DNA from: a virus
Lineage: Duplodnaviria > Heunggongvirae > Uroviricota > Caudoviricetes
Virus record (IMG/VR): IMGVR_UViG_2778261135_000004
DNA length: 34,410 nucleotides
Direction: 5' to 3' (one strand)
Position numbers and translations under genes: made by a program. This document shows positions 2,126 to 26,173 of this stretch, one piece after another; the stretch's first letter is position 1, and each line of letters opens with the position of its first letter. The notes beneath the pieces are model-generated. The model was not told the DNA's origin, searched no databases, and worked only from the letters and a program-made list of their open reading frames with translations.

Positions 2126-2401
2126 ATGAGCAAGCAAGTAACACTCATGACTGATGCGATTCCTTATCAGGAGTTCGCAAAACTAATAGGAAAATCGACA
2201 GGAGCGGTTCGTCGGATGATCGATAAAGGAAAGCTGCCTGTAATTGATATGACCGATCCACAATCAGCTTCAGGTCGTGCAGGTGAATATTGGGTATACC
2301 TTCCGGCATGGAATAACGGACTAAAACTGGCTTATGAAAGCCGTCCTAAAGAGATTCGTGACGGCTGGTTGATGTGGTTAGGTCTCGGTGAACCACGTTA
2401 A
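2126..2401 (+). CDS. cox: Cox excisionase / early-promoter regulator, 91 aa
   Basis: 91-aa ORF, first gene of the rightward early operon divergent from C; P2 Cox length and sequence. Confidence 0.9.
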   Translation: MSKQVTLMTDAIPYQEFAKLIGKSTGAVRRMIDKGKLPVIDMTDPQSASGRAGEYWVYLPAWNNGLKLAYESRPKEIRDGWLMWLGLGEPR

Positions 2402-2411
2402 GGAGAACCGT

Positions 2412-2582
2412 ATGAATGAGCCTCGTTGTATTGCTCAGTTATTGCGTAACGAAAGCCCCAGGGCGATTGACTTCACCATCACCCACGGTAAGGGGCGTAA
2501 GGGAATCATTATCCGCACCAAAAAACAGAGTCCGTTAAAAAAGGCTCTGACCTTTCTGAAAAGCCGGAGGGTCTGGAAATGA
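2412..2582 (+). CDS. Small early protein (P2 orf78-like), 56 aa
   Basis: ATG at 2412 preceded by AGGAG (2402..2406); the 2388 start in the ORF track is a GTG inside the cox 3' end; stop overlaps B start (ATGA). Confidence 0.7.
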   Translation: MNEPRCIAQLLRNESPRAIDFTITHGKGRKGIIIRTKKQSPLKKALTFLKSRRVWK

Positions 2583-3079
2583 CAGTGATGACGCTCAATC
2601 TCGTTGAAAAACAGCCAGCAACTATGCGCCGGATAATTGGTAAGCATCTTGCCGTCCCTCGCTGGCAGGAGACATGCGATTATTATAATCAGATGATGGA
2701 ACGCGAACGGCTAACGGTTTGCTTCCATGCGCAGTTAAAACAGCGTCACGCAACGATGCGTTTTGAAGAAATGAACGACGTCGAACGTGAACGACTGGTA
2801 TGTGCAATTGATGAATTGCGTGGGGCATTCTCAAAACGCCGTCAGGTTGGCGCAAGTGAGTATGCATATATTAGTTTTTTAACAGTCAGTCAGCGCCGTA
2901 CTTTATTTATGCATGCCGGATTGACTGAAAAAGAATTTAACCAGCCATACTGGCGAATTAATGAAGAGTCATGTTACTGGCGTGATGCTTTATTCCGTGC
3001 GTTACGTGAATTATTCAGTCTGTTTGAGTATGCACCGACAATTCTGACGTCGGTAAAACCAGAGCAATATCTGCATTAA
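2579..3079 (+). CDS. B: Replication protein B (helicase-loader-like), 166 aa
   Basis: 166-aa ORF in the early operon; P2 gpB length and sequence. Confidence 0.9.
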   Translation: MTVMTLNLVEKQPATMRRIIGKHLAVPRWQETCDYYNQMMERERLTVCFHAQLKQRHATMRFEEMNDVERERLVCAIDELRGAFSKRRQVGASEYAYISFLTVSQRRTLFMHAGLTEKEFNQPYWRINEESCYWRDALFRALRELFSLFEYAPTILTSVKPEQYLH

Positions 3080-3142
3080 GTAATTAACCAGAGTTTTTAA
3101 CGCACTTAATCGTGCGGGGCTTCTTTTTGCCTGGAGAAAGTC

Positions 3143-3367
3143 ATGCATACAGTTTCTGAAAATCAGTGCGGTAAATACGCATTACTGCTGCAACAGGCCA
3201 GAACCGAAGCACAGGCCGACGCAGCGACGCGCTTTTCTTCTCATCTTGACGCCATGATTCGCCACATCACAAAGGCGGAGTTATCCCGCGTGGAGATAGT
3301 CGAGCTGCTCAGTCAGGAGTCGGAAAAATTTCACAATATCGGATTATCTCGCGGGGAGGTGCTTTGA
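3143..3367 (+). CDS. Hypothetical early protein (P2 orf80-like), 74 aa
   Basis: Position between B and A in early operon; RBS-like GGAGAAAG upstream. Confidence 0.75.
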
Positions 3368-3669
3368 TGTCCTGTTCTCATTCAGTTGTATTACTGAATA
3401 ACGCCTTAAAAATCGCTGTTATGAAAAATGGCGATTTATCTCTTATTCAACTTGGTCTTGATAAAGAAAAACGCGAAATAACTGAGTCTGTTATCGCGAT
3501 TTATCAGAACGAATTAAATCTCCTGTCTGATGTGGTCAATTTACTTGTTAAACGCGCTGTATTTCACAAGCAAATCTCCTCCGTGGATGAACTGACGAAA
3601 TTAACGACAGAAATTGCCAGCTATTGCGCTGATGAATTTAAAAAACTTAACGACAAAAGGAGCTGGTAA
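3364..3669 (+). CDS. Hypothetical early protein (P2 orf81-like), 101 aa
   Basis: Start overlaps previous stop (ATGA-type coupling); notably lower G+C than neighbours. Confidence 0.75.
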
Positions 3670-3893
3670 TGCCGGACAACGTAGATTTTATTCAGGAACA
3701 ACAGGCTGAATTACTGGAGCGCCAGATTAACGCGGCAAGAGTAAAACATTGCGGTGCTTCTGCGCTGGTTTGCGAAGAGTGTGACGCGCCAATACCTGCT
3801 GCCCGTCGTGCGGCTTATCCGTCAGCCACGCGTTGTGTTTCCTGTCAGTCAGTCTTTGAAGCAAAAAACAAACATTACCGGAGAATGGCATGA
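3669..3893 (+). CDS. TraR/DksA-type C4 zinc-finger protein (P2 orf82-like), 74 aa
   Basis: Cys pairs CEECDAPIP...CVSCQ typical of the TraR/DksA zinc-finger family; position in early operon. Confidence 0.8.
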   Translation: MPDNVDFIQEQQAELLERQINAARVKHCGASALVCEECDAPIPAARRAAYPSATRCVSCQSVFEAKNKHYRRMA

Positions 3894-4165
3894 GCATTCG
3901 TATTGAAATTGGCGAACGTTATGTCGTTACCAGTGACAGCTTTCAGTTTATTCTCCACGAGAAAAAGAGAGCGGAAAGCGGTAAAAACGCCGGTCAGGAA
4001 TGGCTGGCGGTGGTTGGTTATTACCCGAAATTAAGCCAGCTCGTTTCCGGCCTGATGCATCACGATATTCTGACCGGAAGCGCAAAGTCTTTTGCTGATT
4101 TAAACGCGCAGGTTGAGCAACTCAGCAGGCGTTGTTCAGAGGCTTTTGGCTCATATGGCCGTTAA
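3890..4165 (+). CDS. Hypothetical early protein (P2 orf83-like), 91 aa
   Basis: Translationally coupled ORF immediately upstream of A; overlaps A start by 11 nt. Confidence 0.75.
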   Translation: MSIRIEIGERYVVTSDSFQFILHEKKRAESGKNAGQEWLAVVGYYPKLSQLVSGLMHHDILTGSAKSFADLNAQVEQLSRRCSEAFGSYGR

Positions 4166-6422
4166 AGCCTCCGGGCGTTTTGTCCCTCCGTCAGCATTTG
4201 CCGCAGGCACCGGTAAGACGTTTACCGGTGCTTATGCATGGAACGCGCCACGTGAGGCTGTCGGGCGCGAAAGACCCCTTACACGTGACGAGATGCGTCA
4301 GGTGCAAGGTGTTTTATCCACGATTAACCGCCTGCCTTACTTTTTGCGCTCGCTGTTTACTTCACGTTATGACTACATCCGGCGCAATAAAAGCCCGGTG
4401 CACGGGTTTTATTTCCTCACATCCACTTTTCAGCGTCGTTTATGGCCGCGCATTGAGCGTGTGAATCAGCGCCATGAAATGAACACCGACGCGTCGTTGC
4501 TGTTTCTGGCAGAGCGTGACCACTATGCGCGCCTGCCGGGAATGAATGACAAGGAGCTGAAAAAATTTGCCGCCCGTATCTCATCGCAGCTTTTCATGAT
4601 GTATGAGGAACTCAGCGATGCCTGGGTGGATGCGCATGGCGAAAAAGAATCGCTGTTTACGGATGAGGCGCAGGCTCACCTCTATGGTCATGTTGCTGGC
4701 GCTGCACGTGCTTTCAATATTTCCCCGCTCTACTGGAAAAAATACCGTAAAGGACAGATGACCACGAGGCAGGCATATTCTGCCATTGCCCGTCTGTTTA
4801 ACGATGAGTGGTGGACTCATCAGCTTAAAGGCCAGCGTATGCGCTGGCATGAGGCGTTACTGATCGCTGTCGGGGAGGTCAATAAAGACCGTTCTCCTTA
4901 TGCCAGTAAACATGCCATTCGTGATGTACGTGCACGCCGCCAGGCAAATCTGGAATTTCTTAAATCGTGTGACCTTGAAAACAGGGAAACCGGCGAGCGC
5001 ATCGACCTTATCAGTAAGGTGATGGGCAGTATTTCTAATCCTGAAATTCGCCGGATGGAGCTGATGAACACCATCGCCGGTATTGAGCGTTACGCCGCCG
5101 CAGAGGGTGATGTGGGGATGTTTATCACGCTGACCGCGCCGTCAAAGTATCATCCGACACGTCAGGTCAGAAAAGGCGAAAGTAAAACCGTCCAGCTAAA
5201 TCACGGCTGGAACGATGAGGCATTTAATCCAAAGGATGCGCAGCGTTATCTCTGCCGTATCTGGAGCCTGATGCGCACGGCATTCAAGGATAATGATTTA
5301 CAGGTCTACGGTTTGCGAGTCGTCGAGCCACACCACGACGGAACGCCGCACTGGCATATGATGCTTTTTTGTAATCCACGCCAGCGTAACCAGATTATCG
5401 AAATCATGCGTCGCTATGCGCTCAAAGAGGATGGCGACGAAAGAGGAGCCGCGCGAAACCGTTTTCAGGCAAAACATCTTAACCGGGGCGGTGCTGCGGG
5501 GTATATCGCGAAATACATCTCAAAAAACATCGATGGCTATGCACTGGATGGTCAGCTCGATAACGATACCGGCAGGCCGCTGAAAGATACTGCTGCGGCT
5601 GTTACCGCATGGGCGTCAACGTGGCGCATCCCGCAATTTAAAACGGTTGGCCTGCCGACAATGGGGGCTTACCGTGAACTACGCAAATTGCCTCGCGGCG
5701 TCAGCATTGCTGATGAGTTTGACGAACGCGTTGAGGCTGCACGTGCCGCCGCAGACAGTGGTGATTTTGCGTTGTATATCAGCGCGCAGGGTGGGGCAAA
5801 TGTTCCGCGTGATTGCCAGACTGTCAGAGTCGCCCGTAGCCCGTCGGATGACGTTAACGAGTACGAGGAAGAAGTCGAGAGAGTGGTCGGCATTTACGCG
5901 CCGCATCTCGGCGCGCGTCATATTCATATCACCAGAACGACGGACTGGCGCATTGTGCCGAAAGTTCCGGTCGTTGAGCCTTTGACTTTAAAAAGCGGCA
6001 TCGCTGCGCCTCGGAGTCCTGTCAATAACTGTGGAAAGCTCACCGGTGGTGATACTTCGTTACCGGCTCCCACACCTTCTGAGCACGCTGCAGCAGTGCT
6101 TAATCTGGTTGATGACGGTGTCATCGAATGGAGTGACCCGGAGGTCGTGAGGGCGCTCAGGGGCGCATTAAAACACGACCTGAGAACACCAAACCGTCAG
6201 CAAAGAAACGGAAGCCCGTTAAAACCACATGAAATTGCACCATCGGCCAGACTGACCCGGTCGGAAAGAATGCAAATCACCCGTATCCGCGTTGACCTTG
6301 CTCAGAACGGTATCAGGCCGCAGCGATGGGAGCTTGAGGCGCTGGCGCGTGGCGCGACTGTAAATTATGACGGGAAACAATTCATGTATCTGGTCGCTGA
6401 TGAGTGGATAGGTTTTAGGTGA
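4155..6422 (+). CDS. A: Replication initiation endonuclease A (rolling-circle initiator), ~755 aa
   Basis: Begins MAVKASGRFVPP... at ATG 4155 (ORF track start 4113 is an upstream extension); contains the HxH-type motif (TPHWHMMLF) and the Tyr-containing region (YIAKYISKNIDGY) expected of P2 gpA-family initiators. Confidence 0.9.
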   Translation: MAVKASGRFVPPSAFAAGTGKTFTGAYAWNAPREAVGRERPLTRDEMRQVQGVLSTINRLPYFLRSLFTSRYDYIRRNKSPVHGFYFLTSTFQRRLWPRIERVNQRHEMNTDASLLFLAERDHYARLPGMNDKELKKFAARISSQLFMMYEELSDAWVDAHGEKESLFTDEAQAHLYGHVAGAARAFNISPLYWKKYRKGQMTTRQAYSAIARLFNDEWWTHQLKGQRMRWHEALLIAVGEVNKDRSPYASKHAIRDVRARRQANLEFLKSCDLENRETGERIDLISKVMGSISNPEIRRMELMNTIAGIERYAAAEGDVGMFITLTAPSKYHPTRQVRKGESKTVQLNHGWNDEAFNPKDAQRYLCRIWSLMRTAFKDNDLQVYGLRVVEPHHDGTPHWHMMLFCNPRQRNQIIEIMRRYALKEDGDERGAARNRFQAKHLNRGGAAGYIAKYISKNIDGYALDGQLDNDTGRPLKDTAAAVTAWASTWRIPQFKTVGLPTMGAYRELRKLPRGVSIADEFDERVEAARAAADSGDFALYISAQGGANVPRDCQTVRVARSPSDDVNEYEEEVERVVGIYAPHLGARHIHITRTTDWRIVPKVPVVEPLTLKSGIAAPRSPVNNCGKLTGGDTSLPAPTPSEHAAAVLNLVDDGVIEWSDPEVVRALRGALKHDLRTPNRQQRNGSPLKPHEIAPSARLTRSERMQITRIRVDLAQNGIRPQRWELEALARGATVNYDGKQFMYLVADEWIGFR

Positions 6423-6440
6423 TGTAGAAATTAATGCGGT

Positions 6441-6465
6441 TAAAAAGTAAGAAACTTACTTTTTG
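6441..6465 (+). terminator. Putative intrinsic terminator downstream of A
   Basis: AAAAAGTAAG-AAA-CTTACTTTTT hairpin with T-run about 20 nt after the A stop codon; AT-rich stem, so weak. Confidence 0.4.
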
Positions 6466-6688
6466 GAGTATAAACATTTTAGTTGTCGAGTAAGGAGCCT
6501 CTGCGATATGGCAATTTCATGTGGTGATATTATGATTTCAAACTTGATTATTAGTATTGCAAGATAAGTTTGCAGTAGGTAACGAGCGTGTAAGGTATTG
6601 TGAGTTTTGTTGTTGTGCATTATATTGATTTTCTTAAGTTTATTGTGTTGGTTGTAATTGAAACTTAACAATTAATTAAGGAAAAAGA

Positions 6689-9040
6689 ATGTTAAAGAGG
6701 ATTAAATTAATAGAGGGCGTAGGTAACTATATTAAAGCTCGCTCCAGCTCTTATGAGTTTAATAACATGAATGTTATCTACGGTGAAAATAGACATGGTA
6801 AAAGTACTCTTTGTGACATCTTTTATTCTTTATCAACGAATACTCCTGAATTGGTTGTTAACAGAAAGACTATTCTGGAGGGAGATGGTGAAGTAATTCC
6901 AAGGATTGATTTACAATTCACAGAGGGGAGTTCAAATAGAGTTGTTTCATTTTATGTAGATAAATGGTCAGGATTACCACCACCAGATTCTAAATTATAT
7001 ATCTTTGATCAGAGTTTTGTTCATAGAAATGTAATGGCAGGTACAGTATCTAATCGAGAAAACTCTGAATGTGTTACTGCATTTATTTTGGGTGAAGACA
7101 ATGTTGCTGCTTTTGAAGCTCTGGAAAAGGAGAATGCAGAATTAAGAAGTTTAAGAGGTTCGTTAAGAAGTAAAAAAGATTTAATTCAATCACACCAAAT
7201 TGATAACGTTGATGAGTATGCTAATAGTGAGCCTGTCATAACAGATTATGATTGCGTTGACTCAAAAATAAATGAGCTTATTAAGTCAATACAAGAAGTT
7301 GAAAAGAAGAAAACAGCCGTCAAATATATTAAAGCAAGGCCGTTGTTTAATTTAATTAACTGTACACCAAAGTTGAAAGATATTTCAATTAGGGTTAATA
7401 AATGTCTTTCTTCTGGAATGGCTACAATTCATGACGATGCACTTTCTATATTAGAGCGACATAAAGAGAGAATAAAGGCTCACGATCATTTTAATGGATG
7501 GATCTCAAACGGGCTTGGTATGGCCACAGAAATATGTCCATTTTGCGGTCAGAGTATATCAGGAGAATCAAAAGAGCTGATTAGTGCTTATAAGGATTCA
7601 TTTGATGAGTCATTTATGCGCTTTATTGAAAGTACAAAAAAAGAATTAAAAGAAATAAGGCGGATTGATTTTTCATTTATCTCATTAAATGTAATTGATG
7701 ATGTACATAGCAAAAACATTGATGTTTTGTCACAGTATTTAGAGAATGAGATAAAAAATGAATTAAGTAATAATGGAAGGTTTGAGTCATGTTGTGCTAT
7801 TTATAATCAAGTAAGAAATGATATATTGACATTTAACCAAGATCTACTTAAGGCTCAGCAATCACTGGAGTGTATATATGATGAGAAAGAATTAGCTGTA
7901 TACAACGAAATGAAGGGGTTTGATTTTTCGGCTCTTCTACAATTTGAGCATGAAATTCATGGCAAATTGGAATCATACAATAGCATTATTAATCAGCTCA
8001 ATGATGAGTTGGTGAAGTATAAAGAAAGTATCAATTCCACCAAATTAGATGTATTACTGGGAATCTATCAAAAAGATCTTGAGCAGTGGGAATCTAATAA
8101 AAAAAGATTATTGCTTGAGCCAGATTGTCGAGAATATCTTGAACTGAAAAAAGAAATAGATATTAGGGAAAAAAACTATAATGAGAAGAAGAAAACATTA
8201 GAGGAATGCCAGGAGCAATTTTTAAACAAATATTTTGAGCACATTAATTCTCTGTTCTGTTCTGTTGGATCTAGTAAATTTTCTATAAATAAAAAAATAA
8301 ACAGGCAGGGTACAAAAATTGTTTATGAACTTGACGTTTCATTTAATGGGAAGGCAGTTGGAAAAAACAAACTTAATTGTTTGTTTAGTGAGTCAGATCG
8401 CCGAGCTTTGGCTTTGTGCATCTTTCTTTCTAAAATTTACTTGTTACCTAATGATGAGAAATCAAAAGCTATTCTTATTATGGATGATCCTGTAACAAGT
8501 TTTGATGAGGAAAGAATATCTTGTATTTTGCAGAAGTTGTATGAATTACAGCCTTATGTAAAACAGATGTTTATTACTACACACTATAAAGGAATGGCAG
8601 CAAAGACATCTCAAAAATTTAATTTGGATAGAATTCTTCAGATCAAACAAGGTCAAGACGGTTCTAATTTTGAACCGCTGAAGGTAGAGCAATTAATAGC
8701 TTCAGACCATGAGAGATCCTATGAGAGGATTGTTGATTTTATAAATGGTGTGGATACTGATAAGACAATAATACTATCTTTAAGGCCATATCTTGAATCA
8801 GAATTCCGTTCTCGTTATCGCAAACAACTGACAGACTGCAACTTAAATGATAGAACGGATTTTTCTGTGTGTATTAATCGACTGGCTGAAGATGGTATTT
8901 TGGAAGAGGAGACGGCCAGAAGAATTCATGGGTTTAGAACTGCACTCAATGAGCCTATGCACGTTATCCGTGAATGGACTGATGAAGATATGAAAAGTTA
9001 TGCGCAGGATATGCTACGCCTAATATATACAGAACTTTAA
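6689..9040 (+). CDS. Cargo gene at the tin/old hotspot: Rad50/RloC-like ABC ATPase with CxxC coiled-coil insert and uncharacterised C-terminal domain, 783 aa (candidate anti-phage defence protein)
   Basis: Walker A GENRHGKST (aa 32-40); long K/E-rich coiled-coil insert with CPFC (aa 283-286); signature-like SESDRRALAL (aa 567-576); Walker B/D-loop ILIMDDPVTSFD (aa 595-606); H-loop TTHY (aa 631-634); ~150-aa C-terminal domain without obvious TOPRIM motifs. Strongly AT-rich relative to the prophage backbone; RBS AAGGAAAAAGA upstream. Confidence 0.8.
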   Translation: MLKRIKLIEGVGNYIKARSSSYEFNNMNVIYGENRHGKSTLCDIFYSLSTNTPELVVNRKTILEGDGEVIPRIDLQFTEGSSNRVVSFYVDKWSGLPPPDSKLYIFDQSFVHRNVMAGTVSNRENSECVTAFILGEDNVAAFEALEKENAELRSLRGSLRSKKDLIQSHQIDNVDEYANSEPVITDYDCVDSKINELIKSIQEVEKKKTAVKYIKARPLFNLINCTPKLKDISIRVNKCLSSGMATIHDDALSILERHKERIKAHDHFNGWISNGLGMATEICPFCGQSISGESKELISAYKDSFDESFMRFIESTKKELKEIRRIDFSFISLNVIDDVHSKNIDVLSQYLENEIKNELSNNGRFESCCAIYNQVRNDILTFNQDLLKAQQSLECIYDEKELAVYNEMKGFDFSALLQFEHEIHGKLESYNSIINQLNDELVKYKESINSTKLDVLLGIYQKDLEQWESNKKRLLLEPDCREYLELKKEIDIREKNYNEKKKTLEECQEQFLNKYFEHINSLFCSVGSSKFSINKKINRQGTKIVYELDVSFNGKAVGKNKLNCLFSESDRRALALCIFLSKIYLLPNDEKSKAILIMDDPVTSFDEERISCILQKLYELQPYVKQMFITTHYKGMAAKTSQKFNLDRILQIKQGQDGSNFEPLKVEQLIASDHERSYERIVDFINGVDTDKTIILSLRPYLESEFRSRYRKQLTDCNLNDRTDFSVCINRLAEDGILEEETARRIHGFRTALNEPMHVIREWTDEDMKSYAQDMLRLIYTEL

Positions 9041-9057
9041 GGCTTATAATTTGCATA

Positions 9058-9083
9058 CCAGTGCATGTATTTGCATGCACTGG
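9058..9083 (+). terminator. Perfect 10-bp inverted repeat (CCAGTGCATG / CATGCACTGG), possible terminator of the cargo gene
   Basis: Hairpin 18 nt after the cargo gene stop; a T-run (TTTTT) follows about 10 nt after the stem, so not a canonical terminator geometry. Confidence 0.35.
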
Positions 9084-9171
9084 CTGTTGGGGATTTTTAT
9101 CGTTCATAGTTTATCCTGCCTGTTTTAGAGAAGGTGCATTGTTGCATTAAAACCGCCCCATGAAGCGGGCG

Positions 9172-9190
9172 GGCGAGGCGGGGAAAGCAC
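9172..9190. other. cos: cos site (19-nt cohesive-end sequence GGCGAGGCGGGGAAAGCAC)
   Basis: Exact match to the P2 cohesive-end sequence as I recall it, located between the right-end cargo and Q, where cos lies in a P2 prophage. Confidence 0.8.
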
Positions 9191-9242
9191 TGCGCGCTGT
9201 TTTGTGCGGTGGTGAGTGTGTGAGGGCGTGATGACGGGGTGT

Positions 9243-9264
9243 AAAAAAGCCGCCCGCAGGCGGC
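9243..9264 (-). terminator. Rho-independent terminator downstream of Q (minus strand)
   Basis: On the minus strand: GC-rich hairpin GCCGCC-TGCG-GGCGGC followed by TTTTTT, immediately after the Q stop codon. Confidence 0.75.
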
Positions 9265-9269
9265 GATGT

Positions 9270-10304
9270 TCAGCCGTTGTCAGTGTCCAGTGAGTAGTTT
9301 TTAAAGCGGATGACCTCCTGACCGAGCCAGCCGTTTATCTCGCGGATCCTGTCCTGTAACGGGATAAGCTCATTGCGGACAAAGACCTTTGCCACTTTCT
9401 CAATATCTCCCAGTGACCCGACGTTCTCCGGCTTGCCGCCCATCAACTGAAAGGGGATACGGTGCGCGTCCAGCAGGTCAGCGGCGCTGGCTTTTTTGAT
9501 ATTAAAAAAATCGTCCTTCGTTGCCACTTCACTGAGCGGGATAATTTTAATGCCGTCAGCTTTCCCCTGCGGGGCATAGAGAAACAGATTTTTAAAGTTG
9601 TTGCGACCTTTCGACTTAACCATGTTTTCGCGAAGCATTTCGATATCGTTGCGATCCTGCACGGCATCGGTGACGTACATGATGTATCCGGCATGTGCGC
9701 CATTTTCGTAATACTTGCGGCGGAACAGCGTAGCTGATTCATTCAGCCAGGCAGAATTAAGGGCGCTGAGATATTCCGGCAGGCCGTACAGCTCCTGATT
9801 AATATCCGGCTCCAGCAGGTGAAACACGGAGCCGGGCGCGAAAGGTGTCGGCTCGTTGAAGGACGGCACCCACCAGTAAACATCCTCCTCAACACCACGG
9901 CGGGTATATTTTGCCGGTGAGGTTTCCAGTCTGATGACCTTACCGGTGGTGCTGTAGCGCTTTTCCAGAAACGCATTACCGAACACCAGAAAATCCAGCA
10001 CAAAGCGGCTGAAATCCTGCTGGGAAAGCCACGGGTGCGGAATAAACGTTGAAGCCAGAATATTACGTTTGACGTAAATCGGTGAGCTGTGATGTACGGC
10101 AGCACGCAGGCTTTTTGCCAGACCGGTAAAGCTGACCGGTGGCTCATACCATCTGCCGTTACTGATGCACTCGACGTAATCCAGAATGTCACGGCGGTCG
10201 AGTACCGGCACCGGCTCACCAAAGGTGAATGCCTCCATTTTCGGGGCGCTGGCGGTGATTGTTTTTGCCGCAGGTTGCGGTGTTTTCCCTTTTTTCTTGC
10301 TCAT
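9270..10304 (-). CDS. Q: Portal protein Q, 344 aa
   Basis: 344-aa ORF; P2 gpQ length and sequence; start ATG overlaps the P stop (ATGA). Confidence 0.95.
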   Translation of the reverse strand: MSKKKGKTPQPAAKTITASAPKMEAFTFGEPVPVLDRRDILDYVECISNGRWYEPPVSFTGLAKSLRAAVHHSSPIYVKRNILASTFIPHPWLSQQDFSRFVLDFLVFGNAFLEKRYSTTGKVIRLETSPAKYTRRGVEEDVYWWVPSFNEPTPFAPGSVFHLLEPDINQELYGLPEYLSALNSAWLNESATLFRRKYYENGAHAGYIMYVTDAVQDRNDIEMLRENMVKSKGRNNFKNLFLYAPQGKADGIKIIPLSEVATKDDFFNIKKASAADLLDAHRIPFQLMGGKPENVGSLGDIEKVAKVFVRNELIPLQDRIREINGWLGQEVIRFKNYSLDTDNG

Positions 10305-18516: not shown

Positions 18517-19152
18517 ATGAACACTCTCGCAAATATTCAGGAACTCGCGCGCGCACTGCGCAACATGATACGCACCGGCATTGTCGTCGAAACCGACCTT
18601 AACGCCGGTCGCTGCCGAGTGCAGACCGGCGGCATGTGCACCGACTGGCTTCAGTGGCTGACCCATCGCGCCGGACGTTCGCGCACATGGTGGGCACCTT
18701 CCGTGGGGGAACAGGTGCTGATTCTGGCCGTGGGCGGTGAACTCGACACGGCGTTCGTTCTGCCGGGGATTTATTCCGGCGATAACCCTGCGCCGTCTGC
18801 GTCGGCTGATGCCCTGCATATCCGTTTCCCTGACGGGGCGGTGATTGAGTATGAACCCGAAACCAGTGCACTCACGGCAAGCGGAATTAAAACGGCCAGC
18901 GTGACGGCTTCTGATTCTGTTACTGCCACGGTACCGGTGGTCACGGTGAAAGCGTCAACCCGTGTCACCCTGGACACACCGGAAGTGGTCTGCACTAACA
19001 AACTGACTACCGGCACGCTGGAAGTGCAGAGGGGCGGGACGATGCGCGGCAACATTGAACACACCGGCGGTGAACTCTCATCAAACGGTAAGGTACTGCA
19101 TACCCACAAACACCCCGGCGACAGCGGCGGCACAACCGGGAGTCCTTTATGA
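18517..19152 (+). CDS. V: Baseplate spike/assembly protein V, 211 aa
   Basis: 211-aa ORF starting the baseplate operon; P2 gpV length. Confidence 0.9.
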   Translation: MNTLANIQELARALRNMIRTGIVVETDLNAGRCRVQTGGMCTDWLQWLTHRAGRSRTWWAPSVGEQVLILAVGGELDTAFVLPGIYSGDNPAPSASADALHIRFPDGAVIEYEPETSALTASGIKTASVTASDSVTATVPVVTVKASTRVTLDTPEVVCTNKLTTGTLEVQRGGTMRGNIEHTGGELSSNGKVLHTHKHPGDSGGTTGSPL

Positions 19153-19496
19153 CAGCGCGTTATCTCGGAATGAATCGCAGTGATGGCCTGACGGTCACTG
19201 ACCTTGAGCATATCAGCCAGAGTATCGGCGATATCCTGCGCACACCGGTCGGCTCACGGGTGATGCGTCGTGATTACGGCTCGTTGCTGGCGTCAATGAT
19301 TGACCAGCCGCAGACTCCGGCGCTTGAGTTGCAGATTAAGGTCGCCTGTTACATGGCAGTGCTGAAATGGGAACCCCGCGTCACCCTGTCATCCGTCACC
19401 ACGGCGCGCAGTTTTGACGGGCGAATGACTGTCACGTTAACCGGCCAGCACAACGACACCGGCCAGTCACTTTCGTTAACCATCCCTGTGAGTTGA
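19149..19496 (+). CDS. W: Baseplate wedge protein W (gp25-like), 115 aa
   Basis: 115-aa ORF overlapping the V stop (ATGA); P2 gpW length. Confidence 0.9.
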   Translation: MTARYLGMNRSDGLTVTDLEHISQSIGDILRTPVGSRVMRRDYGSLLASMIDQPQTPALELQIKVACYMAVLKWEPRVTLSSVTTARSFDGRMTVTLTGQHNDTGQSLSLTIPVS

Positions 19497-19500
19497 AACC

Positions 19501-20409
19501 ATGCCGATTATCGACCTGAACCAGCTACCCGCACCGGATGTGGTCGAGGAGCTGGACTTTGAAACCATTCTCGCTGAACGCAAGGCGACACTGATTTCCC
19601 TTTACCCGGAAGACCAGCAGGAGGCGGTCGCCCGTACCCTGACGCTGGAATCCGAGCCTCTCGTCAAACTGCTGGAGGAAAATGCTTATCGTGAGCTTAT
19701 CTGGCGTCAGCGTGTGAATGAGGCCGCACGGGCGGTAATGCTGGCCTGTGCCGCCGGTAATGACCTTGATGTGATTGGTGCCAATTACAACACCACGCGC
19801 CTGATTATCACCCCGGCAGATGATTCGACCATCCCGCCGACACCGGCAGTGATGGAGTCTGACACTGATTATCGTCTGCGTATTCAGCAGGCGTTTGAGG
19901 GCTTAAGCGTCGCCGGGTCGGTGGGAGCCTATCAGTATCATGGTCGCAGTGCTGACGGGCGTGTCGCGGATATCTCTGTCACCAGTCCGTCTCCGGCCTG
20001 TGTCACTATCTCTGTGCTGTCACGTGAAAATAACGGTGTCGCATCCGAAGACCTGCTGGCTGTGGTACGTAACGCCCTTAATGACGAGGACGTCAGGCCG
20101 GTGGCCGACCGCGTGACCGTGCAGTCTGCTGCCATCGTTGAATACCAGATAAACGCCACGCTTTACCTTTACCCTGGTCCCGAAAGCGAACCCATTCGCG
20201 CTGCCGCCGTGAAAAAACTGGAAGCGTATATCACGGCACAGCACCGGCTGGGGCGCGACATCCGTCTGTCTGCCATTTATGCCGCTTTGCATGTGGAAGG
20301 CGTGCAGCGTGTCGAACTGGCTGCACCGCTGGCCGACATCGTGCTCAACAATACGCAGGCGTCTTTCTGTACCGAATACAGCGTCGTGACCGGAGGCTCG
20401 GATGAGTGA
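19501..20409 (+). CDS. J: Baseplate wedge protein J, 302 aa
   Basis: 302-aa ORF; P2 gpJ length and position. Confidence 0.9.
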   Translation: MPIIDLNQLPAPDVVEELDFETILAERKATLISLYPEDQQEAVARTLTLESEPLVKLLEENAYRELIWRQRVNEAARAVMLACAAGNDLDVIGANYNTTRLIITPADDSTIPPTPAVMESDTDYRLRIQQAFEGLSVAGSVGAYQYHGRSADGRVADISVTSPSPACVTISVLSRENNGVASEDLLAVVRNALNDEDVRPVADRVTVQSAAIVEYQINATLYLYPGPESEPIRAAAVKKLEAYITAQHRLGRDIRLSAIYAALHVEGVQRVELAAPLADIVLNNTQASFCTEYSVVTGGSDE

Positions 20410-20932
20410 TTCGCGACTGCTGCCGACCGGCTCATCACCGCTTGAAGTCGCCGCCGCAAAAGCCTGTGCGGAAATTGAAAAAACGCCGGTCAGTATTCGT
20501 GAGCTGTGGAACCCGGACACCTGCCCGGCAAATCTGCTGCCGTGGCTGGCGTGGGCCTTTTCGGTCGACAGGTGGGATGAAAAGTGGCCGGAAGCGACAA
20601 AACGCGCCGTTATCCGCGATGCCTATTTCATCCACTGTCATAAAGGCACTATAGGTGCAATCCGGCGTGTGGTGGAGCCGCTGGGCTATCTCATCAACGT
20701 GACGGAGTGGTGGGAAAACAGTGACCCGCCAGGCACCTTCCGGCTTGATATTGGTGTACTGGAAAGCGGCATCACAGAGGCAATGTATCAGGAAATGGAA
20801 CGGCTTATTGCTGATGCCAAACCTGCAAGCCGTCATCTTATTGGCCTGAACATTACCCGGGACATTCCCGGCTACCTGTTCGCCGGTGGTGTGGCTTACG
20901 ACGGCGATGTAATTACGGTTTACCCCGGATAA
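20402..20932 (+). CDS. I: Baseplate protein I, 176 aa
   Basis: 176-aa ORF overlapping the J end; P2 gpI length. Confidence 0.9.
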   Translation: MSDSRLLPTGSSPLEVAAAKACAEIEKTPVSIRELWNPDTCPANLLPWLAWAFSVDRWDEKWPEATKRAVIRDAYFIHCHKGTIGAIRRVVEPLGYLINVTEWWENSDPPGTFRLDIGVLESGITEAMYQEMERLIADAKPASRHLIGLNITRDIPGYLFAGGVAYDGDVITVYPG

Positions 20933-20942: not shown

Positions 20943-23261
20943 ATGAGCACAAAATTCAAAACCGTTATCACCACTGCCGGTGCAGCAAAGCTGGCAGCGG
21001 CAACCGCACCGGGAGGGCGGAAGGTCAACATTACCACGATGGCCGTCGGGGATGGCGGTGGTAAATTGCCTGTCCCGGATGCCGGACAGACCGGGCTTAT
21101 CCACGAAGTCTGGCGACATGCGCTGAACAAAATCAGCCAGGACAAACGAAACAGTAATTATATTATCGCAGAGCTGGTTATTCCGCCGGAGGTGGGCGGT
21201 TTCTGGATGCGTGAGCTTGGCCTGTACGATGATGCGGGAACGTTAATTGCCGTGGCGAACATGGCCGAAAGTTATAAACCCGCACTTGCCGAAGGCTCAG
21301 GGCGTTCGCAGACCTGCCGCATGGTCATCATCGTCAGCAGTGTGGCCTCAGTGGAGCTGACCATTGACACCACAACGGTGATGGCGACGCAGGATTACGT
21401 TGATGACAAAATTGCAGAGCACGAACAGTCACGACGTCACCCGGACGCCTCGCTGACCGCAAAAGGTTTTACTCAGTTAAGCAGTGCGACCAACAGCACG
21501 TCTGAAACACTGGCCGCAACGCCGAAAGCGGTAAAGGCCGCGTATGACCTTGCTAACGGGAAATATACCGCACAGGACGCCACCATAGCGCGAAAAGGCC
21601 TTGTCCAGCTCAGTAGTGCCACCAACAGCACGTCTGAAACGCTCGCCGCAACGCCGAAAGCGGTAAAGGCAGCATATGACCTTGCTAACGGGAAATACAC
21701 TGCACAGGACGCCACCACAACGCGAAAAGGCCTTGTTCAGCTCAGTAGCGCCACCAACAGTGATTCTGAAACGCTTGCGGCAACGCTAAAGGCGGTAAAG
21801 GCTGCGTATGACCTTGCTAACGGGAAATACACTGCACAGGATGCCACCACCGCGCGAAAAGGTCTTGTCCAGCTAAGTAGCGCCACCAACAGTGATTCTG
21901 AAACACTGGCCGCAACACCAAAAGCGGTGAAGTCTGCCTATGACAATGCTGAAAAACGTCTTCAGAAAGATCAGAATGGTGCGGATATTCCGGGAAAGGA
22001 TACCTTCACGAAAAATATCGGTGCCTGTCGTGCTTATAGCGGCGCTTTGAGTACTGAAGCCGGAAACTGGACAACCGCTCAGTTTATTGAATGGCTGGAT
22101 TCCCGTGGTGCATTTAATCATCCGTACTGGATGTGCAAAGGCTCCTGGTCATATGCAAATAACAAAATCATTACGGATACCGGATGTGGTGATATCCACC
22201 TGGCTGGTTGTGTCGTCGAGGTCATGGGAATTAAATCTGCAATCACTATCCGAGTGACCACGCCGACAACATCAAGTGGTGGCGGTACAACCAGCGCGCA
22301 ATTCACTTACATTAATCATGGGGACGGCTACTCCCCCGGCTGGCGTCGTGACTGGAATCGTCAGGGCGACGAAATGACCGGAACGATTAATCAGGACGGC
22401 GGTAGCCAGAATGCCTATATGTCTACGGCCTTATGTTCAGGCACCAGAGGCGGCAAAAAATATCTCAGAAAGTTTCGTGGTGGAGAAGGAGACACTGTCT
22501 GGCATGAAACAGTACAGGGCGGGGTAGTTCGCTGGGCGACTGGTAATACTGATGCTCAGGAAGAATTATCACTCAGCTCCGCTTATGGTCTCCGTTCAAG
22601 AGGTGAGATTACATCACTCAGTGCTAATGGTCTGCGCATTGCTTATGGCAATTATGGATTCTTTATCAGGAATGATGGCGGCAGCACATATTTAATGCTG
22701 ACGGCCTCTGGCGATAAATTTGGGACATGGAACGGTTTAAGGCCGCTGACTATCAATAACGCCAATGGCGGAGTGTCAATGGGGCATGGCCTGAGTGTTA
22801 CAGGTGATATTGTCTCAAGTACCAAAGTACGTGCCGGTAGCGGGAAAAAGTTCACGGTCAGCAGCAGCAATACATCCACGAAGGAAGCCGCATTCAATTT
22901 GTGGGGAAACTCAAGTCGTCCGGTGGTGGCTGAATTAGGTGATGATGCAGGCTGGCATTTTTACAGTCAGAGAAATACAGATAACAGCATCACTTTTGCT
23001 GTTAACGGGCAGGTATCACCATCTAACTATAGTAATTTTGATTCACGCTATGTCCGGGATATCCGGCTTGGTGGTGCTGCCACATACAAACCTGCGAACA
23101 ATGGCATGACATGGACACATCAGGCACCGTCCGGGTGTGTATATTCCGGCATTATTGTTCAGGATACCGGCTCAAACTCTGCCGATAACATTGGTGGCGT
23201 ATATTACAGACCGGTGCAGAAATACATTAACGGGACTTGGTATAACGTGGCGCAGGTATAA
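20943..23261 (+). CDS. H: Tail fibre protein H, 772 aa, with tandem-repeat region and divergent C-terminal receptor-binding portion
   Basis: N-terminal region matches P2 gpH (MSTKFKTVITTAGAAKLAAATAPG...); the middle carries ~3.7 in-frame copies of a 44-aa repeat; the C-terminal half is unlike P2 H as I recall it and the protein is about 100 aa longer than P2 H. Confidence 0.9.
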   Translation: MSTKFKTVITTAGAAKLAAATAPGGRKVNITTMAVGDGGGKLPVPDAGQTGLIHEVWRHALNKISQDKRNSNYIIAELVIPPEVGGFWMRELGLYDDAGTLIAVANMAESYKPALAEGSGRSQTCRMVIIVSSVASVELTIDTTTVMATQDYVDDKIAEHEQSRRHPDASLTAKGFTQLSSATNSTSETLAATPKAVKAAYDLANGKYTAQDATIARKGLVQLSSATNSTSETLAATPKAVKAAYDLANGKYTAQDATTTRKGLVQLSSATNSDSETLAATLKAVKAAYDLANGKYTAQDATTARKGLVQLSSATNSDSETLAATPKAVKSAYDNAEKRLQKDQNGADIPGKDTFTKNIGACRAYSGALSTEAGNWTTAQFIEWLDSRGAFNHPYWMCKGSWSYANNKIITDTGCGDIHLAGCVVEVMGIKSAITIRVTTPTTSSGGGTTSAQFTYINHGDGYSPGWRRDWNRQGDEMTGTINQDGGSQNAYMSTALCSGTRGGKKYLRKFRGGEGDTVWHETVQGGVVRWATGNTDAQEELSLSSAYGLRSRGEITSLSANGLRIAYGNYGFFIRNDGGSTYLMLTASGDKFGTWNGLRPLTINNANGGVSMGHGLSVTGDIVSSTKVRAGSGKKFTVSSSNTSTKEAAFNLWGNSSRPVVAELGDDAGWHFYSQRNTDNSITFAVNGQVSPSNYSNFDSRYVRDIRLGGAATYKPANNGMTWTHQAPSGCVYSGIIVQDTGSNSADNIGGVYYRPVQKYINGTWYNVAQV
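21461..21960 (+). repeat. In-frame tandem repeat, 132-bp unit (44 aa), ~3.7 copies, within H
   Basis: Repeating unit KG(F/L)(T/V)QLSSATNS(T/D)SETLAAT(P/L)KAVKAAYDLANGKYTAQDAT..R seen directly in the H translation, and mirrored as an internally repeated antisense ORF (21473..21718); resembles the phage tail-fibre repeat found once in P2 H. Confidence 0.85.
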
Positions 23262-23264
23262 TTT

Positions 23265-23792
23265 ATGCAGCATTTGATAAATATAACGGCAGGTAATCCA
23301 AAAACGGTTGAACAATATCAATTGACAAAGGACTTTGATGTTGTCTGGTTTTTTTCAGAAGATGGTAAGAACTGGTACGAAGAACAAAAGTATTTTGCTG
23401 ATGACACGATAAAAATAGCGTACGACAAAGATAATATTATCCGCTATGTGGAAAAGGATGTGACAGCTATCAGACCGGATGGATTAAGTGTTGTTGAAGT
23501 GCCGGATATTACTGCTAACCGACGGGCGGACATTTCAGGGGGCTGGATGTTTAAGGACGGTACAGTGATTAAACGAATTTATACGGCAGAGGAATTGCAG
23601 CAGCAGGCAGAAAATCGGAAAGCCAGACTTCTTGCAGATGCTGAATCCGTGATTTTGCCGCTGGAGCGCGCTGTCAGGCTGAACATGGCAACAGAGGAGG
23701 AGCGCACACGGCTGGAGGCTTGGGAACGCTACAGCGTTGTGGTCAGTCGTGTGGATCCTGCAAATCCTGAATGGCCGGAAATGCCGCAATAA
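23265..23792 (+). CDS. G: Tail fibre assembly chaperone G, 175 aa
   Basis: 175-aa ORF immediately after H; P2 gpG length and sequence. Confidence 0.9.
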
Positions 23793-23825: not shown

Positions 23826-23885
23826 ATGGCACAGAGTAAAGCCTAATCTGACAGTCCGCTCTGTGCCAAAAGCGGACTGTCAAAT
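23826..23885. terminator. Nested inverted repeats between convergent G and cargo gene (putative bidirectional terminator)
   Basis: TGGCACAGAG/CTCTGTGCCA (23826..23835 / 23860..23869) and AATCTGACAGTCCGC/GCGGACTGTCAAATT (23844..23858 / 23871..23885) can form alternative hairpins; no clean T-run. Confidence 0.4.
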
Positions 23886-23990
23886 TGCATCAAAAGAGCA
23901 TTGATATTACGTTTATTAATATTTCTCAATAATCCCTCAATACTATAAAGGGTTTAGAGACCTAGTTCTTACTTATATCTGGATACAGAT

Positions 23991-25787
23991 CTACGATTTA
24001 ATATCAAATAAAGAACTTTCACCTTTGAATATATTCACCCAATGGTATTGTATGTATTTCATACGGTTTGTGTTTCCGTTGACGTAAGGAATGGTTCTTC
24101 TTTCGATTGTAGAATACATTTGCGCAAGGTGTGTGGTCATTTTTTTATCTCGGCTAATTGCAACTTTTCCATCTGAACGAATGGCAATGAAACCATTTTC
24201 GAAAAGTGAATCACATATTGCACATTGCAACATTGCTATGTTATCGAAATCTGCTCGCTCTTCATGTGTGCATTTAGATCTAGGTTTCACATGCGCAGCA
24301 ATGAGAATAGCATGCGGCCATGAATTTCCGCAAATCTCACAGACCCCTACATTATTTTCATTGCTATATAACAGCGATTGTTGAAGGAGCAGGTATTCTC
24401 GAAGTAATGCTTGTTCTGCACGAGTCTTTCTTAAAAAGGTTCCCAGCACATCTAGTGAATCCAATTCGCTTCTGATGTCTGTTATTTTTCTTCTTATACT
24501 ATCTATTCTTTCCATTCTGGTATCGATAGGCCGAGCCACTTGCTTGGTTGGAATATATTCATCATCAAGTGGTTTGTAGTAATCATTTCGTCTCCCGCCA
24601 CCTTCTTTGTAATACAAGGTTGGATAACTAAAAATCAATGATTTGAAAGCTTGCGGGATTTTCCCTTTTAATTCCCTACCAATGCTCATTGAGTCTAAGG
24701 GGCCACCATTTGATTTTATAGCATTTAAGGCAATAACTTGATAATGGATAGTACCACTGACATCTTCCAATTGGAGTTCTGAATAAAGGCTATCTCCAGG
24801 TATTCTATAACCGGGTGTTGACTCTTGTAGTAATCCAGTTTTCAAACAATAATCGTCCAGAGCACCATCGGCGCTTTCTAGAAGCTCTAGGCAGGGGGGT
24901 TGACGGGCATCTGCACTACGACGGAAGTTGTGTGTAAGGGCCCTTTTTAAAGCAGATATAACTCTTTCAACTTTTAGTGGGTTTTTATAATGAATAAAAA
25001 TTGGTTTGAGAATTCGACTAACTCTTTCGTCACGAGACGTGAAAGCATAAAAACGTCCATTAGAAATAGATAAAAAATCTTCTTCAGTTGAAATTAAGTC
25101 AGATATATATTGCACCTTAATTTCATCAGGAATTTCCCTAATAAAACCAGGAGGGTCTGACTCCCATGAACAAACAGCAAGTTTTTCTATTGAAAATAAA
25201 CCACCAAAATACGTTGATATCTTTCCGGCATATGTGATTAAATCGCTAGTAATGGATTTGGGATTATGATTTTCTTCCAGTATGATTTGATGTCCATTAT
25301 ATTCATGAAATTTGAAATGTGCATTTATTTCGAATGATTTTGCTAACTGAGTAACTATAGGAAGATAAATGTTACTATCAATTACACCTGCTGCTATAAG
25401 AGTGCTTTGGACTTTATTTGAAAATACTGGTTTTTTAGTGGTCGTTATTTTTCCGATTAATATTTCAATCAATTTCTTCAATTGAATAAGGTCAGTTTTC
25501 GCAGCTAGGGTAATCGTATCACCTGCTACCAAGCCTCGGTTGAGCCGACTTAGTTCTGACGGCAAGTCTTGATTTAAGAATTTTGATATGATCTGACGTG
25601 CTCTTTCTCTCGTGACCTCTTTCTTGAGTTCAGGTAGTTTACCCAGCGTATCTAAGGTCAAGTTTCTGCTAGAAGATGTCTGAGTAAAGTGTGCTTTCAA
25701 TATGATCTTAGTAGTTTCTGATGTATTCTTCTTTTGATAAATGCGATCAATCAGTTCTGTAATAATTTCTTGGTAGGTTTTACTCAT
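23991..25787 (-). CDS. Cargo gene at the G-FI (Z/fun) hotspot: ~598-aa protein with C-terminal HNH-type nuclease motif and N-terminal HTH-like segment (candidate anti-phage defence nuclease)
   Basis: C-terminal motif CEICGNSWPHAILIAAHVKP...ADFDNIAMLQCAICDSLFENGFIAI (CxxC ... AAH ... N ... CxxC ... F-x-NG; HNH/His-Me finger, HNH_2-like by eye); N-terminal segment TLDTLGKLPELKKEVTRERARQIISKFL resembles sigma-70 region-4-type HTH. Start taken at ATG 25787; the track start 25799 is a GTG. Strongly AT-rich. Confidence 0.8.
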   Translation of the reverse strand: MSKTYQEIITELIDRIYQKKNTSETTKIILKAHFTQTSSSRNLTLDTLGKLPELKKEVTRERARQIISKFLNQDLPSELSRLNRGLVAGDTITLAAKTDLIQLKKLIEILIGKITTTKKPVFSNKVQSTLIAAGVIDSNIYLPIVTQLAKSFEINAHFKFHEYNGHQIILEENHNPKSITSDLITYAGKISTYFGGLFSIEKLAVCSWESDPPGFIREIPDEIKVQYISDLISTEEDFLSISNGRFYAFTSRDERVSRILKPIFIHYKNPLKVERVISALKRALTHNFRRSADARQPPCLELLESADGALDDYCLKTGLLQESTPGYRIPGDSLYSELQLEDVSGTIHYQVIALNAIKSNGGPLDSMSIGRELKGKIPQAFKSLIFSYPTLYYKEGGGRRNDYYKPLDDEYIPTKQVARPIDTRMERIDSIRRKITDIRSELDSLDVLGTFLRKTRAEQALLREYLLLQQSLLYSNENNVGVCEICGNSWPHAILIAAHVKPRSKCTHEERADFDNIAMLQCAICDSLFENGFIAIRSDGKVAISRDKKMTTHLAQMYSTIERRTIPYVNGNTNRMKYIQYHWVNIFKGESSLFDIKS

Positions 25788-26173
25788 AGCAATCCACACT
25801 CATAAAGTACTGTAAAATGATCCGACTGATTTCTGTAATCATCTCTCATCGGTCCATACCTAACTTGCGGCTAATGAAATGAATATAAAATCATCTAATG
25901 CCTTTTGCTAATTTGATAATGCTATATTTCTTGGAAAATTACACTCTAAAAGGTTAAGTCTGCTCCTCGCTCAAAGCAGACTGTCAGATTTGATAGCGTT
26001 TGGGCTATGTAAATTGTCAGTTGGAAAATGAGTGAGTGCAAATCATGACAGGCAGGCGGATTACCCGCTTTTTCTTTGTCTGTTGTTTCATCCACTGACC
26101 AGCCAGGTCAAATAGCGTCTCATGCACTGCCCAACAGAAAATAGTTGCACCCATTAACCACGGAGTTAAACGG

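Follow-up and report, generated by a model that had tools for sequence, protein, structure and literature searches.

A module-built tail fibre gene with four PF03406 units in a P2-like Escherichia coli prophage

Gene H of the prophage studied here encodes a tail fibre protein with more copies of a 44-residue repeat than its P2 counterpart and with a distal part that is largely foreign to P2. The locus raises the question of how such a fibre came about, and whether it is still a working one. The window, the whole stretch of DNA that was analyzed, is 34,410 nt long. At a probability of about 0.88, H is the intact tail fibre gene of a P2-like (Peduovirus) E. coli prophage, assembled from modules and predicted to be functional. 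What is established here is the anatomy of the gene with its breakpoints, its polymorphic copy number, the action of purifying selection and the linkage of tip and chaperone. The features are as follows.

20943..23261, plus strand: gene H, tail fibre protein, intact open reading frame (772 aa)
20943..21395, plus strand: N-terminal baseplate-attachment domain of P2 type (aa 1-151; Pfam PF12571, E 1.4e-58)
21450..21944, plus strand: four 44-aa PF03406 units (aa 170-334), from Tandem Repeats Finder, four Pfam matches, the unit HMM and a repeat search (spacing 132)
21945..22406, plus strand: Mu/P1 Sv'-type domain (aa 335-488; PDB 8JU3 residues 177-333, domain E 5.2e-69), not in P2 H
22407..22574, plus strand: connecting segment (aa 489-544), outside all PDB matches and without a P2 counterpart
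22575..22832, plus strand: Mu S/T4 gp34-type trimerisation domain (aa 545-630; PF21446 and PDB matches)
22833..23072, plus strand: conserved P2-like distal domain (aa 631-710; from alignment, 78% identity to P2 H)
23073..23207, plus strand: hypervariable tip, presumed receptor-contact region (aa 711-755), unlike P2 and vB_YpM_46
23208..23258, plus strand: conserved last 17 aa, RPVQKYINGTWYNVAQV (94% identity to P2 and vB_YpM_46)
23265..23792, plus strand: gene G, tail fibre assembly chaperone (175 aa; PF02413, E 9.2e-34)
23043..23640, plus strand: exchange cassette of the H tip and the N-terminal fibre-binding domain of G (G aa 1 to ~125; ~600 nt)
23845..23886, plus strand: hairpin 3' of G and probable terminator of the operon (inverted repeat I5, whose 16-nt arms are 94% complementary)

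H has the makeup of a P2-type gpH (Peduoviridae), with a PF12571 N-terminus, a late-operon position before G and a conserved C-terminal end. The operon order V-W-J-I-H-G is that of a complete P2-type prophage, the V, W, J and I homologues being the open reading frames at 18517-20932 upstream of H, and the position of H-G is shared with P2 gpH and gpG (AAD03286.1 and AAD03287.1; AF063097). The RefSeq 'tail fiber protein' WP_089633333.1 of E. coli SBF45 is 100% identical to H. In the window and the near-identical SBF45 prophage the P2 gene set is complete, from integrase to late genes and ogr. In the left arm (window positions 1-10000) the best match, at 97.9%, is in strains other than SBF45, and the cargo gene differs; taking the window to be the SBF45 prophage was rejected for the left arm, despite the 100% identity of H-G.

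One could suppose that the prophage is cryptic and its fibre gene H in decay, the mosaic structure and a Pro-to-Leu replacement being signs of relaxed constraint. The element is known here only as a prophage, and unit 3 of the repeat has Leu282 at a nearly invariant position, Pro being kept in 632 of the 655 repeat cores examined; this residue could slightly impair that unit. Decay is nevertheless highly improbable, as the reading frame is intact, dN/dS over codons 1-700 is 0.08 against the H orthologue of the Yersinia phage vB_YpM_46 (QKE55600.1), no part of the P2 gene set is missing, and the close relatives vB_YpM_46, P37 and fiAA91-ss form plaques.

The four units of this apparently intact fibre start at nt 21450, 21582, 21714 and 21846 (aa 170, 214, 258 and 302). 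The fourth is a junction unit in which the motif is retained to aa ~336, giving ~3.75 copies at 21450-21944, close to the ~3.7 in-frame copies of 44 aa that a sequence-only reading had placed at 21461..21960. The substitutions which that reading listed between copies are also present (NSTSE/NSDSE, ATPKAVK/ATLKAVK and TIARKG/TTTRKG/TTARKG). Tandem Repeats Finder returned a single array of 3.5 copies with a period of 132 nt and 88% matches (21489-21944; score 674), and no other array in the window scoring above 44. Pfam matched four PF03406 stretches in H (E 8.5e-77), and with the 42-position PF03406 profile H scored 253 bits against a gathering cut-off of 22, which places it with Phage_fiber_2.

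Short-read assemblies can miscount 132-nt tandem repeats, and the number of copies might on that account be an artefact, a concern that the sequence-only reading had itself raised. The evidence leaves this explanation with virtually no probability. Pairs of H units differ at 16-31 of 132 nt (12-23%), mainly at synonymous sites, so reads place uniquely and the array cannot collapse in assembly. The complete E. coli SBF45 genome contains an identical H-G (2850/2850 nt), and at least 80% of H-G is present in 146 complete E. coli genomes; all 29 other matches listed align with H-G over its full length and without gaps at 97.6-97.8% identity. Similarly, 357 complete genomes contain at least 80% of the repeat region and its flanking sequence, and several hundred contigs encode 772-aa proteins with 99% identity, among them 351 contigs for P0086 and 96 for P0107.

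As the four units are real, it may be asked when they arose. In P2 H (669 aa; AF063097) there are two units (aa 170-202 and 214-244), and not the single one with which it had been credited. The higher number in H would be explained if a P2-like ancestor that had one or two units had undergone a recent, lineage-specific expansion, and unit duplication does happen in relatives, as in a five-unit allele (L004) where two units have 0 differences in 132 nt. However, dS between H units is 0.41-1.0 (dN/dS 0.07-0.19) whereas dS between H and its vB_YpM_46 orthologue is only 0.09, and each H unit pairs with its own orthologue in that phage with 2-7 differences per 132 nt. Because the units are far more diverged from one another than H is from vB_YpM_46 and are orthologous one to one, the array in H is old and not the product of a recent expansion. 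P2DC1, 9W and 12474II likewise have four units. In addition, a different downstream junction truncates the second unit of P2, and P2 is therefore not the ancestral state by default. Given the above, recent expansion in this lineage is very unlikely. The repeat expansion first proposed thus stands as a larger number of units than in P2, four against two and not against one, but as a feature of ancient date. Purifying selection acts on every H unit.

Gain and loss of units are better seen among relatives, in which an HMM trained on the four H units served to count the copies. Counts of 3, 4, 5 and 6 occur among the 120 nearest protein clusters and close relatives have 2-6 units, while 150 distant representatives have 0-12, mostly spaced at 44 aa. 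Forms of 728, 772 and 816 aa, with 3, 4 and 5 units, are 97-100% identical in the remainder of the protein, and on a second backbone alleles with 5 or 6 units are otherwise identical. The 3-unit allele corresponds to the vB_YpM_46 array less unit 2. Copy number is a live polymorphism in E. coli prophages, and recent gain or loss of units shows in sister alleles and not in the H of the window. With four copies, H lies within the natural range of 2-6 and is therefore not a new kind of thing. A search of the literature on PF03406 found nothing on copy-number variation in P2-type fibres.

Units are probably gained and lost in exact 132-nt steps as neighbouring units slip or cross over unequally; in H, neighbours share in-register exact identical runs of 26-35 nt. 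Since alleles with 3, 4 and 5 units (and with 5 and 6) coexist, differ by exact 132-nt steps and are under purifying selection in every unit, it is conceivable, if rather doubtful, that the number of PF03406 units serves as a selectable length dial of the fibre. If so, the reach of the fibre could be tuned to the depth of the O-antigen or capsule layer of the host. The natural series of 3-, 4- and 5-unit alleles provides a ready test of fibre length against adsorption.

Downstream of the array, the relationships of H change from segment to segment. In a sliding comparison, DNA identity to P2 is 92-100% up to ~nt 21660, the sequences are unrelated up to ~22860, and identity is again 67-82% up to ~23040. 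Identity to vB_YpM_46 is 87-100% (mostly 93-100%) up to ~23040, falls to 38-85% only within 23043-23640 and then returns to 88-97%. On this pattern, H consists of at least five segments of separate ancestry with breakpoints at conserved joints. As proteins, H and P2 H are 95% identical over aa 1-251, with PF03406 units common to both, and 97% identical over aa 1-169, in keeping with the P2-like N-terminal part noted from the start. In contrast, the ~300 residues at aa 335-630 are without equivalent in P2 (4-16% identity) and the tip is 11% identical, while aa 631-710 (78%) and the last 17 residues (94%) are again P2-like.

The sequence-only reading had considered the C-terminal ~450 aa different from P2. 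That description fits aa 335-630 and 711-755 but fails for aa 631-710 and the last 17 residues; the ending quoted as foreign, ...RPVQKYINGTWYNVAQV, equals P2's ...RPIQKYINGTWYNVAQV (94% over 17 aa), and 16 of the 17 residues of the Tfa-recognised C-terminal end (…RPxQKYINGTWYNVAQV) are the same as in P2 H. Modular recombination of the receptor-binding region, proposed in the same reading, is supported by the breakpoints mapped against P2 and vB_YpM_46. The donor lineages it had asked for were found as well: Mu/P1 Sv'-type and Mu S/T4 gp34-type sequences, and the tip and G cassette of Peduoviruses such as fiAA91-ss, 10W-12W and P24C9.

Among the closest known fibres is that of vB_YpM_46, whose H is 93% identical over its full length and has four orthologous units; its relatives include YPM-4, P37 (three units), YpM_115/117 and GMS190. 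Fibres of this type have the same Sv'-type and gp34/Mu S-type middle as H (95-99% identity), and aa 489-544 are found at 93-95% identity only in YpM_46/P37-type fibres. The middle module in its entirety turned up solely in P2-like phages whose isolation host was Y. pestis. Peduoviruses of the fiAA91-ss group, with three or four units, share only the Sv'-type domain of the middle (79-80%) and are without aa 489-630. The Sv'-type domain also occurs in P1 Sv', P7, and Mu-like and lambdoid side tail fibres. In the following module, Pfam places PF21446 at aa 540-604, and aa 550-624 match PDB entries 5YVQ, 4UXE and 5NXF; the latter two represent the C-terminal trimerisation domain of T4 gp34 (E ~1e-23 to 1e-25), the sole domain that H shares with that protein.

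The likeness to Mu extends further. Residues 177-333 of Mu S' (PDB 8JU3) align with H aa 334-488 (E 5e-69), residues 261-503 of Mu S in complex with TfaMu (PDB 5YVQ) align with H aa 545-771 (E 3.5e-42), and Mu fibres and H have in common a PF03406 unit, the NGADIP motif and a chaperone of the Tfa family. Such matches to both S' and S would be expected if H belonged to an invertible, switchable fibre system in the style of Mu and P1 (S/S', U/U', Gin/Cin). In Mu, however, there is one unit and an invertible segment carries the modules as parts of two alternative genes, whereas in H both Mu-like modules follow four units in one fixed open reading frame, on a single strand, joined to a P2 baseplate adaptor. 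The locus has no bracketing inverted repeats at distal H and G, no second Sv/U set and no nearby invertase gene. A search for a Mu gix-like site with an approximate pattern found none at up to 3 mismatches, which is weaker evidence than the missing inverted repeats. The likelihood of an invertible fibre is negligible, and the Sv'/Sv homology of H is one of shared domains, not of membership of an invertible system.

That mosaic tail fibres are common to P2, Mu, P1, lambda and T4 is textbook knowledge, reportedly going back to Haggard-Ljungquist et al. in 1992 and Sandmeier in 1994. H leaves this established knowledge unchanged and is a clean worked example of how phages reshuffle their host-recognition genes.

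The segment in which H departs from vB_YpM_46 continues into G. As in other Tfa (PF02413) partners, G lies directly 3' of H; its N-domain varies and matches the tip, and its C-domain is conserved. It had been called P2-like, which is only loosely true because its identity to P2 G is 74% overall, at 69% for aa 1-100 in the N-domain and 81% for the C-terminal half (aa 101-175). In a module-by-module identity table, the tip type and the type of G N-domain co-vary in 13 of 13 fibres compared, and in the same comparison the G C-domain is 77-97% identical, PSP3 excepted. The cassette of the YpM_46-type phages is of P2 type and that of the window is of another type, their tips being 22% identical in amino acids. 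The window's type is found at 96.7-97.9% DNA identity in 19 Peduovirus records among the matches listed (about a dozen distinct phages); fiAA91-ss, P2DC1 (OU784750), P24C9, 10W/11W/12W, D8 and PhiR44 have tips 98% and G N-domains 96-99% identical to those of the window. The H tip and the G N-domain were exchanged together, as one ~600-nt unit. For host-range engineering of P2-type phages and R-type pyocin-like particles, this would mean moving the tip together with the G N-domain. In the P2-like phage P88, host range was changed by swapping HR2, the equivalent of the tip region (PMC5285337).

A fibre of this makeup is probably arranged as follows. The P2-type N-terminal domain would anchor the fibre trimer to the baseplate, and the four PF03406 units would form a repetitive shaft segment, continued distally by the Sv'-type and Mu S/T4 gp34-type trimerisation domains. 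The hypervariable tip of ~45 aa, borne by the conserved distal domain, would touch the receptor, probably the LPS core; the nearest solved pattern to this tip is that of Mu S, and the two fibres of Mu bind the outer and the inner core of LPS (PMC11821841). The chaperone G would fold and cap the tip, its variable N-domain matching the tip and travelling with it; in Tfa proteins the fibre is bound by the N-domain, and a role in driving trimerisation has been proposed for the conserved C-domain (PMC9608196). The conserved joints at which modules are probably swapped by recombination are the core of the repeat (...ETLAATPKAVK...), the NGADIPGKDTF motif, the stretch SSSNTSTK...FDSRYV and the final 17 codons. 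The shaft role of the repeats, LPS as the receptor and any influence of the number of units on the reach of the fibre or on host range are inferred. That the mid-fibre Sv'-type domain provides an additional, lateral receptor-binding site, making the fibre bispecific, seems less likely still than the length dial.

A PDB search with two repeat units returned only Mu S and S', with one unit each, and no array of several PF03406 units; the S' structure 8JU3 is credited to Mori et al. 2024 in PMC11821841. The PF03406 domain has been described as little known in structure and function, and has tentatively been regarded as globular and not rod-like (PMC3368898, from 2012), a view that counts against a shaft role. 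An AlphaFold2 model of aa 150-360, run as a single-sequence monomer of what would be an intertwined trimer, was all-helical at a mean pLDDT of 49.6 and a pTM of 0.35 and was discarded for too low confidence. Beyond G, the position of the hairpin is equivalent to that of an annotated terminator in P2.

H belongs to a well-known class of mosaic tail fibres, in which it is ordinary, and its repeat array is real and correctly placed. Upstream of the gene lie homologues of V, W, J and I, baseplate genes of P2, and downstream lies G, whose product is a tail fibre assembly protein (Pfam PF02413). The domain order is as follows.

Genes and Pfam domains of the H-G region
20943-23261 (+): H, ORF, 772 aa
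H aa 1-151: phage tail-collar fibre N-terminal domain (PF12571)
H, four stretches: phage tail fibre repeat (PF03406; 253 bits, cut-off 22)
H aa 540-604: gp34 trimerisation domain (PF21446)
23265-23792 (+): G, ORF after H, 175 aa

In these fibre families H forms a trimer that docks on the baseplate through its N-terminus and binds the receptor through its C-terminal tip, the folding of which is aided by the G-type protein.

The sole strong tandem array in the whole window lies at 21489-21944 (period 132 nt, 3.5 copies, 88% matches, score 674; Tandem Repeats Finder). The 44-aa units begin at aa 170, 214, 258 and 302, and the fourth keeps the motif through ...AVKSAYD, after which the sequence changes. 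Together with a listing of the protein units, this bears out the coordinates, copy count and substitutions named in the sequence-only reading. Its proposal that the array expanded recently from a P2 state with one copy fails on both counts. P2 H (669 aa; AF063097) carries two units, and the window units are diverged, differing from one another at 16-31 of 132 nt, mostly in synonymous codons (dS 0.41-1.0, dN/dS 0.07-0.19; Nei-Gojobori). Each is nearest to the same-position unit of H from Yersinia phage vB_YpM_46 (YpM_46), the best phage match. Codons 1-700 of the two H genes give a dS of 0.09 and a dN/dS of 0.08 by the same method, and H is under purifying selection. The unit divergence, the dN/dS values and the position-matched YpM_46 units therefore indicate a four-unit array much older than the window allele and selectively maintained. 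At codon 282 (unit 3, 21786-21788) H has Leu where the ...LAATPKAVK core has Pro. Of the 655 repeat cores examined, 632 have Pro at this position and just two have Leu, these two coming from two protein clusters with the same unit-3 sequence.

Though the array is old, unit number is labile among close relatives. The best 120 protein clusters nearest to H have lengths of 728, 772, 808-819 and 862-863 aa, equal to 3, 4, 5 and 6 units, and the 728-, 772- and 816-aa forms are 97-100% identical in all remaining segments. One 3-unit allele (L005) is the YpM_46 array with unit 2 exactly removed. In a 5-unit allele (L004 3001-5451, E. coli GCA_002230065.1) the adjacent units 3 and 4 have no differences in 132 nt, a sign of a very recent duplication or else of an error in the draft assembly. 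Between neighbouring window units there are exact in-register matches of 26-35 nt, long enough to permit unequal homologous exchange or slippage. Four units are unremarkable, both among characterised phages and among 150 distant representatives (of 8525 clusters, E <= 0.001), which have 0 to 12 units with 44-aa spacing predominant.

PF03406 units in characterised phages
2 units: P2, pro147
3 units: P37, fiAA91-ss, PSP3, P88_4B11
4 units: YpM_46, P2DC1, 9W, 12474II

A three-way alignment of window, P2 and YpM_46 H, with a module table, located the differences from P2.

Identity of window H to P2 H
aa 1-169: 97% (aa 1-251: 95%)
aa 335-630: no P2 counterpart (4-16%)
aa 631-710: 78%
aa 711-755: 11%
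last 17 aa: 94%

The C-terminal ~450 aa had been described as non-P2; this applies to aa 335-630 and 711-755 and not to aa 631-710 or the last 17 aa, so that the ending quoted as foreign is P2's own. The window and P2 versions of G are 74% identical (first 100 aa, 69%; remainder, 81%). The modular recombination proposed for the receptor-binding region is upheld, and breakpoints, from sliding 60-nt DNA identity, and donors can now be stated. Against P2, identity is 92-100% to ~nt 21660, where the core of the second unit ends, after which the DNA is unrelated to ~22860, 67-82% identical to ~23040, low in the tip and ~82% over the end of H and start of G; within G it is 63-78% in the N-terminal part and 80-95% in the C-terminal part. 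Against YpM_46, identity is 87-100% (mostly 93-100%) from 19443 to ~23040, 38-85% over 23043-23640, and again 88-97% from 23643 to ~23880.

The 600-nt stretch of low identity, 23043-23640, comprises the tip of H and codons 1 to ~125 of G. This cassette is 96.7-97.9% identical in 19 Peduovirus records among the matches listed, about a dozen distinct phages (fiAA91-ss, P2DC1, P24C9, 10W, 11W, 12W, D8, PhiR44 and others). Tip and chaperone are linked, as their identities co-vary across 13 fibres: besides the window, five have a tip of at least 93% and a G N-domain of at least 95%, and seven have a tip of at most 22% and a G N-domain of 39-72%. This is consistent with what has been published on Tfa chaperones: their N-domain, which is variable, binds the fibre, and the conserved helices at their C-terminus have been proposed as the driver of trimerisation (PMC9608196). 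Swapping the corresponding 31-aa region, HR2, altered the host range of P88, a P2-like phage (PMC5285337).

The non-P2 modules are shared with other phages. In a PDB sequence search, H aa 334-488 matched S', a tail fibre of Mu (8JU3 residues 177-333; domain E 5e-69; ~80% identity by eye), aa 545-771 matched Mu S (5YVQ residues 261-503; E 3.5e-42) and aa 550-624 the T4 gp34 C-terminal region. The middle module recurs over its first 150 aa in Sv' of P1 and P7, in Mu-like phages and in the side tail fibres of lambdoid phages. Within the phage collection, the complete 295-aa module is confined to phages isolated on Y. pestis, at 95-98% identity in the P2-like YpM_46, YPM-4, P37, GMS190 and YpM_115/117 and 85% in the larger YpM_41/44. 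Whereas Mu carries the S and S' modules as two alternative genes in an invertible segment, the window has both in one fixed ORF, and a search of the H-G region found no Mu-style inverted repeats bracketing distal H and G, second gene set or invertase. Immediately after the last unit lies NGADIPGKDTFTKNIG (aa 334-364; 21942-22034), a motif that aligns to Mu in two places, where the constant part Sc ends (residues 145-175) and where Sv' starts (177-207); Mu S' thus has this joint twice and window H once. From these alignments, it looks like a recombination joint common to many fibres.

The LPS core is the receptor of P2. By analogy with the P2 and Mu fibres it may also be that of H; both Mu fibres bind it (PMC11821841). 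The PF03406 units would form an extended shaft segment with a length proportional to their number. The structure of the unit was not known according to a 2012 study (PMC3368898), the PDB holds no solved multi-unit PF03406 array, and a monomer model of the repeat region was discarded as unusable.

That H-G is an assembly artefact or a rarity is rejected, since it is 100% identical over 2850 nt to complete E. coli SBF45 (RefSeq: tail fiber protein and tail fiber assembly protein), at least 80% of it is present in 146 of 5426 complete E. coli genomes, and hundreds of contigs encode a near-identical protein of 772 aa. Among the matches listed, all 29 others are full-length and ungapped at 97.6-97.8%. 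In a further search, 357 genomes had 80% or more of the repeat region and its flanks. The window is not colinear with any one complete E. coli genome of the collection; the left arm (1-10000) has its best match, 97.9%, in strains XH992 and HS4, although H-G is that of SBF45. Prophages at the yegR-yegQ site have fibre alleles in common and different cargo.

Two cargo genes accompany this fibre.

6689-9040 (+): low-GC gene, 783 aa, with replication gene A (4113-6422) to its left and the portal gene (9270-10304) to its right, the P2 old/tin slot
23991-25799 (-): gene of ~35% GC, 602 aa, between G and the tail sheath gene, the P2 Z/fun slot

The 783-aa product is an AAA_13 ATPase (Pfam, E 1.6e-33) and matches over its full length PDC-S06, a candidate defence system in PADLOC (E 1.6e-153); SBF45, with its identical H-G, lacks the gene. 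The 602-aa product has a weak HNH_2 match (aa 487-540), its C-terminus resembles PADLOC HNH and type II restriction-enzyme-like models (E 5e-9), and it is probably an anti-phage gene. Relatives have different cargo in this slot: L004 a TIR_2 protein, L005 DUF3606 and others, P2 fun(Z). The 602-aa gene is flanked by an inverted repeat of 34 nt with 79% complementarity (23845-23878 and 25957-25990); the arms may be conserved terminator-like borders of a cargo hotspot, and the left one belongs to a hairpin after G (23845-23886).
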